From positions 1 through 54,214 of the IMG/VR virus record IMGVR_UViG_3300002026_000174: DNA of 54,214 nt, one strand, 5' to 3'. Shown piece after piece: positions 44,939-49,331 of this stretch (position 1 is the stretch's first letter; the number at the start of each line of letters is the position of its first letter). The notes beneath the pieces were generated by a model that made no database searches, was not told the DNA's origin, and saw nothing but the letters and a program-made list of their open reading frames with translations. The DNA comes from a virus. Lineage: Duplodnaviria > Caudoviricetes. A program made the translations under genes and the position numbers.

Positions 44939-45094
44939 TTATGGCTCAACACATGACTTAGTCAGTGCTTTTTTTACATACTTCCAGCTGTAGTACAGAC
45001 TGTAGTAAACGGTGCCTGTGGTGATCGCCAGCATAAACATGCCCGCGAGCATGAGAGTAGCTAAGACGACGATGAAAGTTTCGATGAGCTTCAT
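44939..45094 (-). CDS. 51-aa membrane protein (not in ORF track)
   Basis: MKLIETFIVVLATLMLAGMFMLAITTGTVYYSLYYSWKYVKKALTKSCVEP*; GAGGAG RBS lies within the IsrB element end. Confidence 0.6.
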   Translation of the reverse strand: MKLIETFIVVLATLMLAGMFMLAITTGTVYYSLYYSWKYVKKALTKSCVEP

Positions 45095-45124
45095 CAGACT
45101 TCTCCTCGACGGATACCCCGCCCT

Positions 45125-46285
45125 TCAGGGTGGGGAGGAGGAGAGCAGGTGGACCTGCCCTCGGCGCAGCAGTGAGTGTTGACGGCGCATGGCTTTTTTC
45201 TGGGTGCGGTGAGCGGCGGCGTGGTCATAGAGACTCCAGGGTGAGTGAGAGACGAGGGTGAGGTCGGTAGGTTTAGCGTTTTGGCATAAGCGGGAGTTAC
45301 TGACGGGGGCGTTTAGACTGAGCCTACCTTGGCCGTCATGACCACCAACCAGACACTGACCGTATTTAGGGTGTATGGCCAGTGTACCCTTTTGGATACC
45401 CAGCGAGAGGCTACCCCCGTAGCGGCGACGCTCACCGCCCTGAGAGGGGTTAAAGAGGGTGAGCTGGCGCCGGATCACGGGAAGCTGCTTCAGGACCAGC
45501 AGAGCTTCGAGGTCAGGGGTGGTATGGCCACCGACCCAGGCGTTAGCTAAGGTCCAGCTGTCCACGCAGTGGGCACTGAAGATGGTGGCGAGTTTGCTCT
45601 TGGTCTTGGGTAGCCCCATGGCTTGGCGCATCTCGTAGGTCTGGTGGCCTTCGACTTTGACCAGCTCGACGCCGTAGGCTTGCAGACGCCGATAGAGCCA
45701 GTGCTTACCAGCCTCGATGGGACTGAAGTTGTTGTTCCAGCGTTTGGCGCCGGCGTGCTGACCTTTGACAGTCTTGGCTTTGACATCCTCGATGACGACG
45801 CACTCGACGGGGTAGAGGTTGGCCAGCCAGGCGAAGATGTTGTACTTGAGCTGCCAGCGGGCGTGGGTGGAAGGCGGTAGCCAGTCCTGCTTACGAGCAC
45901 GATTCGGTCGGCAGGCCCGACACGGGGTCTTGCGCTGACGACGAGCACCCCGAGCGTTAGCGCGTGTCTCCACAGCTTTGCTGATACCTTTACCGTCAGC
46001 GGCGTGGGACTGGATGTTCAGCAGCGTGCGCTTCTCGGATTTCAGGGTGTAGCCTTCCATCTTAGAGCCGGGGTCGATGCCGAGGGCGATGGGTTGGGTA
46101 TCTCCGTCTTCGCGCTCGGTGAGGACGATGTAGAAGAGGCGGCTCTTATAGTGAGGTGTGGCTTTACCTTTAGCGATGAGTTTGCGGGCACGTGCGGGGT
46201 GGCACGGCATGAGGGGTTTACCCGTCTTAGAGACGACGGGGACCCAGCGCTGCTGATGCGGGTCTGAGGAGATGGGTGTGGTCAT
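45125..46285 (-). CDS. isrB: IsrB RNA-guided nickase (intact, ~386 aa)
   Basis: KPLMPCHPARAR (PLMP), GIDPGSK (RuvC-I), Arg-rich helix, VIEDV (RuvC-II), SAHCVDSW (RuvC-III), no HNH; ATG 46285 preferred because the listed start lies in the omega-RNA. Confidence 0.88.
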   Translation of the reverse strand: MTTPISSDPHQQRWVPVVSKTGKPLMPCHPARARKLIAKGKATPHYKSRLFYIVLTEREDGDTQPIALGIDPGSKMEGYTLKSEKRTLLNIQSHAADGKGISKAVETRANARGARRQRKTPCRACRPNRARKQDWLPPSTHARWQLKYNIFAWLANLYPVECVVIEDVKAKTVKGQHAGAKRWNNNFSPIEAGKHWLYRRLQAYGVELVKVEGHQTYEMRQAMGLPKTKSKLATIFSAHCVDSWTLANAWVGGHTTPDLEALLVLKQLPVIRRQLTLFNPSQGGERRRYGGSLSLGIQKGTLAIHPKYGQCLVGGHDGQGRLSLNAPVSNSRLCQNAKPTDLTLVSHSPWSLYDHAAAHRTQKKAMRRQHSLLRRGQVHLLSSSPP

Positions 46286-46533
46286 GGTGATTTCTGCCTT
46301 ACGGCGCTTCGGGTGAACGAGTGAGGGCCCCTTCGACACTGACAGCTTCAGAGGTTACGGGCTAGGGGAGTACCTGTAACGTGATGTGGCCTGCCACGGC
46401 CTTAGCTGTTCAGTATTGCGCCCGCGGTAGGTAAGGGTCTACAGCGCGGGTGTCTAGTACAACCGTTTAGTCTCGAGTTAGGCCCTTGGCAGGGCTGCTC
46501 TCAAGCCCCGGCTTTTAAGCCGGGGTGGTTGAC
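46286..46533 (-). ncRNA. omega-RNA scaffold of IsrB locus 2
   Basis: About 250-nt structured non-coding leader starting GTCAAC; stems ACTGAACAG/CTGTCAGT, GTTAC/GTAAC and CCCCT/AGGGG. Confidence 0.85.
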
Positions 46534-46538
46534 AGATG

Positions 46539-46712
46539 TTAGATGAAATGCGTGAGCTGCAAGACTTGCTCAACAAAGAGGTACCAAGCCCAAAATGGAA
46601 CTATGCAAAAGATAGTAGACCAAAACCCTTGTGCAATCACGACCCCGCCGATCCACGCGAAGATAAGTAGCAACGAGGTCAGGTTAGCGACCAGTGACGT
46701 GAGTGCATTCAT
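46539..46712 (-). CDS. 57-aa membrane protein (not in ORF track)
   Basis: ATGA overlap with the ligase stop; MNALTSLVANLTSLLLIFAWIGGVVIAQGFWSTIFCIVPFWAWYLFVEQVLQLTHFI*. Confidence 0.7.
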   Translation of the reverse strand: MNALTSLVANLTSLLLIFAWIGGVVIAQGFWSTIFCIVPFWAWYLFVEQVLQLTHFI

Positions 46713-48739
46713 TTAAGCATCCCCAGTAAAGTGACTTCGTCGATGATGGGAACATTGAGGAGTTGGGCTTGCCTGAGCTTAGAACCCGCTCCAGGCCCCG
46801 CGATGAGCATCTGGGTCTGTTTACCCACACCAGACTGAACAGTCGCTCCTAGGCCCTCTAAACGCGTTTTAAGAGCATCCCTGCTCATCGAGTAGAGTGT
46901 ACCTGAGATCACCACGTTCTTACCCGTGAACGGACTGTCTGTTTTGACCTCAGTGACTTCCCAGTGCACCCCTAGGCGTTTGAACTCATTGAGCATCTCA
47001 CGGTTAGAGGGGTCTTGGAAGAACGTGTACACACTTTTCCCAACAGTAGGTCCAATGTCTCTGACTGCCTGGATCTCTTCTAACGTAGCCGCTTGAATCG
47101 CCTCTAACGTTTTGAAGGCATCGACCAAGCGCTTAGCTGTGCCCTGACCCGCGTACCGGATACCTAGAGCAAACAAAAACTTCTGTAGAGTCGTCTGTTT
47201 AGATTGCTCAATGGCGTCTAAGACCTTAGTCGCACTCTTAGTCCCCATACCGTCGATGCAGCTCAAAATCCTCAAAGACGTCTCACGATGCTCAACGAGT
47301 TTGTAGAAGTCCACCGGGGAGCGAATCAGTCCTTTAACCAGTAGCTGATCCACCAAAGATTCACCCACCCCCTTGATGTCTAAAGCTGAACGCTGAATGA
47401 AGTGCAACACTGCACCTTTGAGTTGGGCAAAACACTTCAAACCGCCGGTACACCGAGAATCAGCTTCCTCTTCTTCCCTGATAACGGGAGAGCCGCACAC
47501 GGGACAGTGAGTGGGCATCGTGAATTCTGCGCTACGCTCTACCCCTGGTGCAACCAGAGAACCAGTGATCTCCGGGATCACATCACCGGCTCTGCGTACC
47601 ACGACCACATCACCCACCCGCACATCTTTGCGCCGTGTCTCATCTTCGTTATGTAGGGTAACGTTGGTGACCGTTGCGCCACCCACAAAGACAGGCTCTA
47701 GACGAGCTACAGGGGTAAGTTTACCGGTACGACCCACCTGGATATCGATGGCTAAGAGTTTGGTTTGCTTCTCTTGCGCTGGGTACTTGTGGGCAACAGC
47801 CCATTTGGGCTCACGGCTGATGTAGCCCAGTTTCTCTTGCAGTGCGAGATCGTTGACCTTGTAGACTACCCCGTCAAGCTCCACGTCCAAAGACTCGCGT
47901 AAAACAGCGATCTTATTGTGAAAGTAGCTCAGGCCTTCTACACCTTTGAAGAGCTCAGTGTGCTCACACACCGGGAACCCCAAAGAGCGCAAGTACATCA
48001 GTTGCTCGTAATGAGTGATGTGTTTGACCCCTGAGACCTCAACTAACGTGTACGCAAAAAAACCCAGGTGCCGAGAAAATGTCACACCCGGGTCTAAGAC
48101 ACGCAATGAGCCAGCCGCGGCATTTCTGGGGTTGATGTAGAGCTTCTCACCCAAAGCCGCTTGCTCACGGTTGAGGTTAAAGAAAGCTTCCTTACCCATG
48201 TAGACTTCACCGCGCACATTGAGGTAAGCGGGTGTGCTCTCATCACCGAAGATCTGTTTAGGCACTGTGCGGATCATGCGCACATTAGCAGTAACGTCTT
48301 CGCCATATTCACCGTCACCGCGGGTGATCGCTTTGACCAGATGGCCATCCACGTACTCTAAGTCAATGCCCAGACCATCGAACTTGAGCTCAGCGCAGTA
48401 CTCAATCGTCTCTTCGGTGTTGAGAAGTTCATGTACACGTGTATCAAATTGGTGAGCACCTGCTGATGTATAGTCTGTCTCGGTTTTCAGACTGAGCATG
48501 GGGTGCTTATGTGCAGCTACCTCAAAGGTGCGCTGGACTTTCAGTGTCGCACCCGCTCTCTGTGTAGGAGAGTCCTCGGCGATGAGCTCGGGGTACTTCT
48601 CTTCTAGCTCTTGGAGCTTGATGTATTTCTGGTCATATTCGTAGTCGGTCATGAGGGGTCGACCAGCGTAGTAGTAAGCCTCGTTGGCTTTTCTGAGCTC
48701 TTGCACAAGAGCGTCGTATTGGTGTTCGATGGTGTTCAT
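46709..48739 (-). CDS. ligA: NAD-dependent DNA ligase
   Basis: YYY...D.EYD, PMLSL, KFDG adenylation motif, RGDG..GED, DGVVYK, VGRTG, C4 zinc finger, HhH repeats, BRCT; AGGAG RBS at ATG 48739. Confidence 0.95.
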   Translation of the reverse strand: MNTIEHQYDALVQELRKANEAYYYAGRPLMTDYEYDQKYIKLQELEEKYPELIAEDSPTQRAGATLKVQRTFEVAAHKHPMLSLKTETDYTSAGAHQFDTRVHELLNTEETIEYCAELKFDGLGIDLEYVDGHLVKAITRGDGEYGEDVTANVRMIRTVPKQIFGDESTPAYLNVRGEVYMGKEAFFNLNREQAALGEKLYINPRNAAAGSLRVLDPGVTFSRHLGFFAYTLVEVSGVKHITHYEQLMYLRSLGFPVCEHTELFKGVEGLSYFHNKIAVLRESLDVELDGVVYKVNDLALQEKLGYISREPKWAVAHKYPAQEKQTKLLAIDIQVGRTGKLTPVARLEPVFVGGATVTNVTLHNEDETRRKDVRVGDVVVVRRAGDVIPEITGSLVAPGVERSAEFTMPTHCPVCGSPVIREEEEADSRCTGGLKCFAQLKGAVLHFIQRSALDIKGVGESLVDQLLVKGLIRSPVDFYKLVEHRETSLRILSCIDGMGTKSATKVLDAIEQSKQTTLQKFLFALGIRYAGQGTAKRLVDAFKTLEAIQAATLEEIQAVRDIGPTVGKSVYTFFQDPSNREMLNEFKRLGVHWEVTEVKTDSPFTGKNVVISGTLYSMSRDALKTRLEGLGATVQSGVGKQTQMLIAGPGAGSKLRQAQLLNVPIIDEVTLLGMLK

Positions 48740-48836
48740 AGGGTGCTCCTTTAGGTGGCTCACGGCATTGCCAGCACTATTAAAATCTACAGGGATTGGG
48801 CATGGTGTGACCATAAACACCCCTAGAGAGATCATC

Positions 48837-49331
48837 ATGGCTACAAACCGTTTTACCTTAGCTGAACCCATTACACCTGTTGAAGCTGCACCCACTGCGT
48901 CCGGTCGTGCACTCGAAGAGTTCTTGATCTTACTCGAAGCTAACCTGACCAAGACACCGACGCTTTTGAAGTTTGTGCAAGAAGGACGCTTCATCCCCTC
49001 TACGGTGTTCACGACCTCGGTGATCAGTCTGTGCACCGATGCGCTAGACGGCTCGGTGGATCTGACCTCGGACTGTTTGATTCTCTCTGACCTGATTCGC
49101 CTGTACTCCTTTAACTTCTTCGGAGATACCACCAAGGTCTACCAAATCTTCAAGTCTATTCTGAACGCTAACCGCACGGCTGGTGGTAATCGCCAACCTC
49201 TGTACAAAAGCGCTGTCGATGACTTCTACTTCCAAGATGCCGAGCAGCTCAACACCTTCTTGAACGACAATGAACTCTTACTGGTGATCTACATCGTGAG
49301 TCTGGTCACTTTGATTGTCTCTGAGGACTAA
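48837..49331 (+). CDS. Hypothetical protein (164 aa)
   Basis: ATG 48837, divergent from ligA, genome-typical codon bias. Confidence 0.65.
   Translation: MATNRFTLAEPITPVEAAPTASGRALEEFLILLEANLTKTPTLLKFVQEGRFIPSTVFTTSVISLCTDALDGSVDLTSDCLILSDLIRLYSFNFFGDTTKVYQIFKSILNANRTAGGNRQPLYKSAVDDFYFQDAEQLNTFLNDNELLLVIYIVSLVTLIVSED

Follow-up and report, generated by a model that had tools for sequence, protein, structure and literature searches.

Positions 45095-46533 of the window, the whole viral contig of 54,214 b analysed here, probably hold an intact, non-autonomous IsrB (ISC1) element of the IS200/IS605 type that would use a flank-derived guide and a short TAM, the element and the proposed guide/TAM mechanism being judged together. 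Its family is already known and proves common in big phages, and within it the element is ordinary. The contig is rated about 27% complete, which implies a genome of roughly 200 kb; the label 'jumbo' rests on this estimate. The stretch is present in four microbial-mat sequencing runs from 2 studies, with no RNA run listed among them.

All features of the locus lie on the minus strand, between genes for a DNA ligase and a UvsX-like recombinase. The upstream gene encodes a small membrane protein of 57 aa (46712-46539, TAA stop at 46541-46539) and is separated by CATCT (46538-46534) from the omega-RNA scaffold (46533-46286), which forms the transposon's right end, opens with GTCAACCACC and then a hairpin (its stems at 46525-46519 and 46512-46506), and reaches the start codon of isrB. 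The isrB ORF (386 aa, ATG start, 46285-45125) runs into the left end of the transposon, a conserved TCCTC motif with a subterminal hairpin at 45139-45116, and its TGA stop falls within the loop between the stems 45135-45128 and 45123-45116. A 21-nt terminal tail (TATCC..., 45115-45095) then abuts ATGA (45094-45091; TCAT on the plus strand), the predicted TAM and insertion site, whose ATG is the start codon of a gene for a 51-aa hydrophobic protein (45094-44939). This order had been proposed in the first-pass annotation and can be read directly off the sequence and its ORFs; likewise, deleting 45095-46533 places the stop and the ATG of the two small genes 5 nt apart, as stated there. GC is 0.60-0.61 within the element versus about 0.50 in the flanks. 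CTGA at 45097-45094 overlaps the ATGA as an alternative NTGA, and from the window alone the 3' boundary could therefore lie at either of two positions 3 nt apart.

The 57-aa protein matches phrog_16613 (E 6e-12) and is strongly hydrophobic, with a peak 19-aa hydropathy mean of 2.16. Its relatives found by tblastn are in distant phages only, namely Vibrio phage genes annotated as 'TMhelix containing protein' with 44-46% identity. The 51-aa protein is likewise strongly hydrophobic (peak 19-aa hydropathy mean 2.50), with no PHROG match, none in Pfam above cut-off and no relatives in viral contigs.

The isrB product matches Pfam RRXRR (E 2.9e-38, residues 15-174) and the IsrB structure PDB 8dmb (E 9.4e-38, residues 15-314; profile search E 3.4e-63). 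No HNH domain was matched in Pfam at E <= 0.1, and IscB structures align at residues 15-130 only. An N-terminal PLMP domain, in which GKPLMPCHP aligns with GRPLMPTTP of 8dmb, is followed by a split RuvC and a C-terminal predicted TAM-interacting region carrying R332-x-x-Q335. D71, E166, H239 and D242 are invariant among 44 homologues, and the catalytic residues align with the GIDPG, EDV and H..D motifs (RuvC-I/II/III) of 8dmb. R332 is present in 44/44 of these homologues and Q335 in 30/44. The database lists 1506 homologues in all. HMM alignments with the 8dmb protein, DtIsrB, end near residue 316 and leave DtIsrB 303-353 unaligned. Nothing relevant was matched in PDB by the last 107 aa of the protein. 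From the motif and from covariation, not from alignment, we infer that R332 and Q335 would be the equivalents of DtIsrB R323 and Q326. We also infer that the protein would act as an RNA-guided, TAM-dependent nickase of the non-target strand.

Directly upstream of isrB, on the same strand, is a predicted structured omega-RNA that is cognate to it. Rfam HEARO matches 46533-46321 over model positions 1-211, the whole model, with an E value of 1.2e-5 and a score of 38.6 bits, which is under the Rfam gathering score of 83. When 34 omega-RNAs of viral origin were aligned, compensatory changes were found in 25 of 29 predicted pairs. In 47 of 68 viral relatives with unrelated upstream flanks, homology starts at the GTCAA of the scaffold start, and in contigs of the source metagenomes other copies break there, with loose ends at 46533 and 46535. 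Both observations uphold the earlier suggestion that the guide comes from the flank directly 5' of the scaffold, with the predicted 20-nt segment at 46553-46534; its length is an assumption taken from DtIsrB, which was used with a 20-nt guide (PMC9581776), and its 5' end is likewise assumed. This segment is unique within the window when up to 3 mismatches are allowed, and the last codons and the stop of the 57-aa gene fall inside it. On the element strand, no sigma-70-like promoter was found.

The boundaries of the element follow a rule that holds across the family. The viral contigs contain 92 IsrB loci, many on contigs of 100-485 kb, and the 3' ends of the family were located with a covariance model (R1). 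With this model, 44 of the 49 recognisable IsrB 3' ends adjoin ATGA, 18-27 nt past the hairpin; among loci left out of model training the figure is 25/30. At 38 of the 44 ATGA-abutting ends, an ORF 40 or more codons long begins with this ATG. As a control, A stands at +4 in 65 of 221 other ORF starts (29%). The TCCTC motif and hairpin at the left end of the window's element align with 18 family ends, the terminal hairpin stem covaries (54 model matches), and in run X1 a variant copy has compensatory changes that preserve the terminal stem. The hairpins at 46525-46506 and 45135-45116 share orientation and loop type, and are subterminal at the two ends of the element, which lacks terminal inverted repeats. 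In L107, the closest relative at 77% identity, a tail of equal length (21 nt) again precedes ATGA. Three copies in one phage (L090, L094 and L095) share the sequence from GTCAA to ATGA in otherwise unrelated flanks and diverge directly after ATGA; their boundaries are exactly those of the window's element. The family boundary rule is GTCAA through the hairpin plus about 20 nt, then ATGA. L009/L018 lacks the terminal hairpin. A scan of metagenomes with IsrB gave 2 loci only, and so did a scan with the omega-RNA motif.

The element end was also proposed to supply the ribosome binding site of the downstream gene. This applies to a subfamily: in the window the tail contains GAGGAG (45107-45102) at a distance of 7 nt from the ATG that follows, and GGAG stands 7-8 nt before the ATG in the window, in L107 (at the same distance), in L019 and in the 53%-identical element of Bacillus phage AgentSmith, a cultured system. 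The proposal does not extend to the whole family: of 50 ends, only 13 have an SD-like motif within their last 14 nt.

In DtIsrB, whose TAM is NTGA, R323 reads G3 of the TAM and Q326 reads A4; the wild-type enzyme cuts TTGA and ATGA and does not cut TTGG or ATGG, while Q326R cuts all four (PMC9581776). Across the phage family, the equivalent of R332 is R in 69/69 loci. The residue taken as the counterpart of DtIsrB Q326 is replaced by R, K or T at loci flanked by a base other than A. Among 50 loci anchored by the covariance model, A occurs with Q in 43 and with another residue in 3, while a base other than A occurs with Q in 0 and with another residue (R, R, K, T) in 4 (p = 1.5e-4, kinship ignored). 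A model-free alignment of 66 loci gave 41, 6, 8 and 11 for the same classes (p = 3.6e-4, again ignoring kinship). The exceptions include L041 (R) and L057 (L), which have ATGA, and L033 and L069, which combine Q with ATGG. Since this predicted TAM-reading residue varies with a base external to the element, the nuclease appears to have been selected to act on the empty site. The predicted guide and TAM of the locus are supported by this pattern.

Natural alleles without the element were found in another lineage. At one site in the lineage L099-L106, the occupied allele (L099) measures 1274 nt, while L103 is exactly empty (0 nt), its flank abutting ATGA without a target-site duplication; another empty allele has ATGG, and L104 is an internally deleted remnant of 134 nt. 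In this lineage, of which three distinct element-free or remnant alleles were examined, the element-free alleles have a mismatch at a seed position, two of them also with an ATGG TAM, and a single C/G difference 6 nt from the TAM follows occupancy. At the family level, insertion occurs at a fixed short target, as the ATGA at 44/49 ends illustrates, and absence is scarless, without duplication, as L099 and L103 show. The initial assignment of ATGA as TAM and insertion site is supported: the family ends, the three copies in one phage, the empty site of this other lineage and the covariation of the TAM-reading residue all agree with it.

For the window's own phage, the exact 27-nt upstream flank has 0 matches in viral contigs, and these yielded no allele of it that lacks the element. 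Its UvsX relatives are 37-69% identical, and in the two that were read (L006 and L002) there is no upstream synteny; the ligase relatives are 23-28% identical. Both sets are too distant to show an empty allele. By blastn against named phages, no match covered more than 9% of the query, and for AgentSmith the phage collection held no relatives that could show its empty site. No joint skipping the element was seen in the metagenome contigs, which leave some bins uncovered and, as they drop rare variants, say nothing about empty alleles.

Together, these observations are consistent with the following mechanism. Read-through from the ligase/57-aa operon would yield an omega-RNA with a 5' guide made up of the ~20 nt that directly precede the scaffold (46553-46534). 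The IsrB-omega-RNA complex would recognise the guide sequence only when NTGA comes next, an arrangement expected solely in an element-free allele or at the joint left after excision, while in the occupied allele the GTCA of the scaffold would stand in place of the TAM. IsrB may then nick the non-target strand, and in the replicating, recombination-proficient pool of phage DNA the nick could become a break, whose repair from an element-bearing copy would retain the element or copy it into the empty allele. Reaching new sites would need a Y1 TnpA acting in trans, from the unseen part of the phage, a co-resident element or the host, which would insert the element 3' of TCAT on the plus strand. 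The terminal GAGGAG probably substitutes for the RBS of the 51-aa gene, which would make insertion nearly neutral.

The first-pass annotation had imagined this process without a transposase, an idea that the evidence does not support. Because related elements occupy many unrelated sites, flank-derived guides cannot explain their spread, and of 5 large phage records with IsrB, 2 score above cut-off for PF01797, the Y1 TnpA family. One tnpA element in a phage has the same end, hairpin plus tail, abutting an ATGA start codon. In the 54-kb record PF01797 has no match at E <= 1, which is why the element is called non-autonomous; since the window is about 27% of the genome, this absence says little about TnpA in the phage. 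Most IscB/IsrB loci are reported to lack a nearby TnpA (10.1101/2023.03.14.532601). It is plausible that a transposase is supplied in trans.

The same observations raise the question of whether the nuclease contributes at all. The locus might be an insertion sequence driven purely by TnpA at TCAT, in which IsrB and its omega-RNA are passengers with no part in homing or retention and the site is simply harmless. The many unrelated sites and the TnpA genes in those 2 of 5 phage records fit this account. Excision of IS200/IS605 elements is scarless, and could alone yield the empty alleles of the L099 lineage, in which no co-conversion tract is centred on the site and flank identities of 92-100% form a mosaic. 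Against it, 69 non-identical loci and 44 homologues from the database have all preserved the IsrB ORF with its catalytic residues, the omega-RNA covaries, and the TAM-reading residue tracks an outside base that is relevant only to a nuclease working on the empty joint. We therefore regard a passenger nuclease as unlikely.

For an active nuclease, homing between co-infecting phages is plausible. In its full form, the scenario is that large phages carry IsrB-omega-RNA elements as homing elements guided by RNA. Where infections are mixed, alleles without the element would be marked by the nickase through the flank-derived guide and the ATGA start codon, and recombination-dependent replication would copy the element across, amounting to a self-reprogramming gene drive parked at start codons. 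Element-free phages might escape by changes in the seed or the TAM, of which the L099 lineage offers examples in its ATGG alleles and a synonymous C-to-G change, and the nuclease might follow by switching its TAM-reading residue from Q to R or K. We put this scenario forward tentatively, with the chances somewhat against it in its entirety. To our knowledge, homing from a nick has not been demonstrated for any IsrB. A literature search covering the main text of papers found no description of phage-borne IsrB elements as homing elements. The restorative homing experiments cited in section 5.6 of a 2026 review concern TnpB and IscB only (PMC13565253).

Targeting of element-free relatives could alternatively serve exclusion instead of copying, the immobile element having been domesticated as a phage weapon with which IsrB nicks close competitors lacking it. 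The lack of a TnpA in the window and the position between DNA ligase and a UvsX-like recombinase agree with this, and the seed mismatch and the two ATGG TAMs in the L099 lineage are changes expected from escape of targeting. However, they come from only three distinct element-free or remnant alleles, both transposon ends of the window's element are intact and family-typical, a guide that fits near-identical relatives only would give a very narrow range of exclusion, and a nick is a weak weapon, all of which makes this reading improbable. Least probable is an inactive relic, unexpressed or non-functional in the window's phage in spite of its intact-looking ORF and RNA: the element strand shows no promoter-like site and the HEARO score is under threshold, but nothing interrupts the 386 codons of the ORF, which has every catalytic residue as well as the R..Q motif, and relics in this family look different (134 nt in L104; no terminal hairpin in L009/L018).

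Phages, with their many genome copies, co-infection and strong recombination, are a natural and tractable setting in which to examine whether a nickase can drive homing, and AgentSmith would be a cultured system for it. Phages may also be a source of compact nickases with known TAM switches. What the analysis adds concerns the family in phages, namely its frequency, its start-codon boundary rule, its natural alleles and the tracking of the TAM by a residue.

The closest characterised system is the IsrB of Desulfovirgula thermocuniculi (8DMB; Hirano et al. 2022, PMC9581776), which belongs to the same family and has a PLMP domain and a split RuvC without HNH; as described there, it also resembles the locus in its upstream same-strand omega-RNA with the guide at the 5' end, its NTGA TAM and its R323/Q326 pair, comparable to R-x-x-Q. 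The two proteins share about 35% identity at most and differ in size (386 aa in the window versus 353 aa), the scaffold is about 248 nt in the window versus 262 nt for DtIsrB, and the C-terminal 70 residues of the window IsrB do not align with DtIsrB. Furthermore, the window IsrB is phage-borne and known from sequence alone, whereas DtIsrB comes from a thermophile. Weinberg et al. (2009, Nature) reportedly described HEARO as inserted beside ATGA or GTGA, which often served as a start codon. The HEARO model (RF02033) is matched by the window over its full length, from the first position on, although the match scores 38.6 bits against a gathering score of 83 and the associated ORF has no HNH.

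In comparison with the IscB/TnpB elements of the IS200/IS605 group (Meers et al. 2023, 10.1101/2023.03.14.532601; PMC13565253 section 5.6), the window's element likewise has subterminal hairpins at both ends, an omega-RNA bounded by the right end, a TAM identical with the target site of the transposase and a flank-derived guide, and the role proposed in these sources, a cut at the empty joint after which the element is regained by recombination, is the one suggested here. The experiments they describe used the double-strand cutters IscB and TnpB on a bacterial chromosome or plasmid, while the window enzyme is a predicted nickase in a phage. Because a phage infection offers many genome copies and co-infection, retention of this kind would become homing between genomes. 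In this respect the element approaches the free-standing Seg and Mob homing endonuclease genes of T4-like phages (PMC13565253 section 3.2), which are likewise intergenic selfish genes between conserved phage genes; like them, the window's element is predicted to target the empty allele in a related phage that co-infects the cell, and to spread by recombinational repair. As presented in that section, Seg and Mob read their target by protein, whereas the window's element would read it by a flank-derived RNA guide and a 4-nt TAM; unlike them, it would discriminate automatically between occupied and empty sites, and it possesses transposon ends by which TnpA could move it to new sites.

On the minus strand, the element at 45095-46533 is flanked on each side by a small gene. 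Upstream lies the gene for an NAD-dependent DNA ligase (phrog_3869, E 6e-187), followed by a 57-aa ORF (46712-46539) that ends in TAA, and by the five bases CATCT. Directly after these come GTCAACCACC and a GC-rich hairpin (from 46533), and then the 386-aa isrB ORF (46285 to 45125), whose TGA stop sits in a hairpin loop; this second hairpin, with stems at 45135-45128 and 45123-45116, is preceded by TCCTC. A 21-nt tail (45115-45095) carries GAGGAG 7 nt before ATGA (45094-45091), the ATG of which starts a 51-aa ORF, and a UvsX-like recombinase gene (phrog_97, E 2e-38) follows, all on the minus strand. This anatomy, described by the first-pass annotation, was confirmed from the window sequence, and removal of 45095-46533 indeed leaves the two small genes 5 nt apart from stop to start. 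The GC content is 0.60-0.61 within the element versus about 0.50 outside. Both small proteins are strongly hydrophobic, and the 57-aa protein belongs to phrog_16613 and resembles the products of Vibrio phage genes named 'TMhelix containing protein'. Since the window, a whole viral record of 54,214 b, is rated about 27% complete, the designation 'jumbo' extrapolates to a genome of roughly 200 kb.

As listed, the ligase ORF (46709-49135, minus strand, 808 aa, TTG start) is 132 codons longer upstream than the family match, which begins at an internal ATG, and this extension is probably not translated. The ligase stop overlaps the start of the 57-aa gene in an ATGA (46709-46712, minus strand), an unoccupied NTGA/start-codon site in the same operon. 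Altogether, the window contains 441 ATGA on both strands.

The 386-aa protein contains an RRXRR domain (Pfam, E 2.9e-38), and no Pfam match to an HNH domain was found in it. Among solved structures, the IsrB of PDB 8dmb is its closest relative (residues 15-314, E 9.4e-38; with a family profile, E 3.4e-63), and IscB structures are matched over no more than ~115 N-terminal residues. D71, E166, H239 and D242, located in the three RuvC motifs, are invariant across 44 aligned homologues. The family comprises 1506 members at E <= 1e-20, the nearest being 81% identical. Relatives are carried, for example, by Bacillus phage AgentSmith (53%), an uncultured 485-kb phage (46%) and Microcystis phages (33%). 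The corresponding PHROGs entry, phrog_32617, is listed as of unknown function.

Upstream of isrB, the Rfam HEARO model matched from its first to its last position at 46533-46321 (E 1.2e-5), with a score of 38.6 bits that lies below the gathering score of 83. The window was aligned with 33 viral relatives, picked from 68 non-identical loci because a GTCA start could be recognised 200-275 nt upstream of the protein match, with L020, L056 and L072 excluded as aberrant. RNAalifold predicted 29 pairs in this alignment, and 25 of them show compensatory changes, so that the RNA is of the omega-RNA kind, structured and conserved. The motif GTCA(A/C)(C/T)NA(C/T)C with its hairpin was present upstream of isrB in 47 of the 68 loci, and the 25 nt preceding it are unrelated between these loci. 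Contigs from four microbial-mat runs (two studies) were compared across the region; other copies leave the window sequence at 46533 and 46535 for different flanks, both of which resemble stop or Shine-Dalgarno contexts in minus-strand reading.

Position 46538 marks a third break, due to a contig matching the window over only ~37 nt at the first hairpin (46502-46538; runs X2 and X3). The depth of this contig in run X2 is about 95; its match comprises the first hairpin, GTCAAC and CATCT, the last lying outside the scaffold start, and it departs from the window on both sides. On the plus strand, the element ends give sub-threshold matches to Rfam HgcC (RF00062) at 45055-45158 (33.3 bits, E 4e-5) and 46446-46548 (24.5 bits, E 0.0096). 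Because both ends match, the archaeal HgcC family may itself represent IS200/IS605-type transposon ends.

A profile scan detected 92 IsrB-encoding stretches in viral contigs; the best 80 were retained and, after removal of 11 identical duplicates and one stop-less locus, 69 non-identical loci including the window remained. The 3' end of the window's element aligned with 18 others in a common layout: a subterminal hairpin with a TNAA-type loop, preceded by TCCTC, then GGT(T/C)TCC, about 14-16 variable bases and ATGA. A covariance model of this end, R1, gave 54 matches in 73 sources, of which 49 stand at the 3' end of isrB (the window, L015 and 47 viral loci). The remaining five comprise L010, cut by the record end, two same-strand matches away from the isrB end (L053:1481 and L067:2275) and two opposite-strand matches in L060. 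ATGA was found 18-27 nt past the hairpin in 44 of the 49 isrB ends, a count slightly biased towards ATGA by its inclusion in R1, and in 25 of the 30 ends outside the building set of the model. The exceptions are ATGG (L037 and L030), GTGG (L078), ATGT (L032) and a TTGA three bases earlier (L088). An ORF of 40 codons or more starts at the ATG in 38 of the 44 ATGA ends, in one more it runs off the locus, and five have no such ORF; as a crude control, A follows ATG at 65 of 221 ORF starts elsewhere in these loci (29%).

The closest relative with DNA sequence, L107, is 77% identical over the C-terminal half and ends in GGGG, 21 nt including GGAG, and an ATGA opening a 283-aa ORF, so that its tail has the same length as that of the window. 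Within a single phage lineage, the copies L090, L094 and L095 resemble one another between GTCAA and ATGA and have unrelated sequence outside these points. Taken by itself, the window sequence is also compatible with the overlapping CTGA (45097-45094) as TAM, but the family spacing and L107 favour ATGA.

The L107 contig bears the label of a Candidatus Paceibacterota MAG and carries a tail-fibre-like gene, whose 592-aa product contains repeats of tail-fibre-like motifs; possibly the contig comes from a phage and was binned with bacterial DNA. In L053, the solitary second R1 match (1481-1529), about 2 kb upstream of the IsrB element, ends in ATGG and could mark where a further element ends, or be a remnant.

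Searches including viral contigs found no relative of the window phage near enough to reveal its empty site; a junction of the predicted type was found for a homologous element instead. The substitute lineage was that of the L034 phage, which occurs in four samples and encodes an IsrB with 48% identity to that of the window, and the gene upstream of its element retrieved eight loci. L099, L100 and L102 hold a 1274-nt element between '...AAATA' and 'ATGATAACACC...', and in L103 the same flanks are joined directly, with 0 nt between. L105 and L106 are also empty, with ATGG in place of ATGA. At the same site, L104 (4904-5037) retains 134 nt, in which the first omega-RNA hairpin is joined to the final ~100 nt and their terminal hairpin and which we interpret as a MITE-like derivative of the 1274-nt element. 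No target duplication was seen in these alleles; the first G of the element changes the upstream stop from TAA to TAG. A synonymous position within the guide segment, 6 nt from the TAM, is C in the occupied and remnant alleles and G in all three empty loci. With only two distinct empty alleles seen, this change and the ATGG could be an escape from targeting or plain variation. The flanks of the lineage are 92-100% identical in a mosaic manner, with no clear co-conversion tract.

In DtIsrB, R323 is reported to read the TAM G and Q326 the final A; the wild type cuts TTGA and ATGA and leaves TTGG and ATGG uncut, and the Q326R mutant cuts all four (PMC9581776). The window protein has R332-L-C-Q335 in the corresponding region, and we infer that R332 and Q335 are the equivalents. 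The former position is R in 44 of 44 homologues, and the latter is Q in 30, R in nine, K in four and I in one. At 50 model-anchored junctions, A as the fourth base was paired with Q in 43 loci and with another residue in three (L041, R; L057, L; L015, read as Q by a looser pattern), while a base other than A was paired with Q in none and with another residue in four (L037 and L078, R; L030, K; L032, T; Fisher p 1.5e-4, loci treated without phylogenetic correction). For a model-free test, the base was taken from the first ATG past the isrB stop opening at least 40 codons, which three of the 69 loci lack, and the residue from the MAFFT column of the 69 loci. The respective counts in 66 loci were 41, 6, 8 and 11 (odds ratio 9.4, Fisher p 3.6e-4, likewise uncorrected). 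Among the eight cases of Q with non-A, some reflect wrongly called starts; L033 and L069 seem to be genuine exceptions. L037 and L030 each stand beside close relatives having Q and ATGA, so that at least some switches are recent and paired. Because the fourth TAM base lies far from the guide in an occupied locus, this coupling is expected only if the enzyme acts on the empty joint. The relative L009/L018 (63% identical) reads the TAM with R in place of Q and lacks a recognisable hairpin at the end 3' of isrB, with an ATGA start codon still 40 nt past the stop; it is possibly an immobilised copy.

A ribosome-binding site at the element end had also been proposed. In the window, L107, L019 and AgentSmith (junction read across the ends of the linear record), a GGAG-type motif precedes the ATG by 7-8 nt, and a variant copy in run X1 retains the tail motif of the window. 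Across the family, the proposal applies less widely: just 13 of 50 ends have a Shine-Dalgarno-like 4-mer in the last 14 nt, the last 8 nt being A/T-rich instead.

A life cycle 'without a transposase', as the first-pass annotation put it, is unlikely. A match to PF01797 was absent from the 54,214-b window (about 27% of the genome), and copying into an empty allele would not itself require a transposase. Yet closely related ends occur in many unrelated contexts, with three copies in one phage, and a flank-derived guide cannot take the element to a new site. Y1 TnpA genes above the Pfam cut-off were found in two of five large IsrB-bearing phage records, within complete-looking IS605 units (tnpA and tnpB) at L109:1448-3124 (record G005) and L108:449-1884 (record G001). 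In L109, tnpA with a divergent tnpB ends in the same TCCTC-hairpin-GGTTTCC tail as the IsrB elements, adjoining an ATGA start codon. Since guides cannot explain new sites, these genes and the L109 end make arrival through a transposase supplied in trans likely.

The first HEARO description reportedly noted insertion beside ATGA or GTGA start codons. Searches of the main text of articles found no paper that describes IsrB elements of phages as homing elements. The earlier interpretation is supported in part: the guide, TAM, reconstructed empty site and portable ribosome-binding site are well founded by comparison of sequences, and expression, nicking and homing of the window element are inferred. 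IsrB, omega-RNA, the NTGA TAM and a retention model for IS200/IS605 nucleases have already been reported in published work (PMC9581776; 10.1101/2023.03.14.532601; PMC13565253). The window element is a further member of this published kind, and the family-level regularities are of greater interest.
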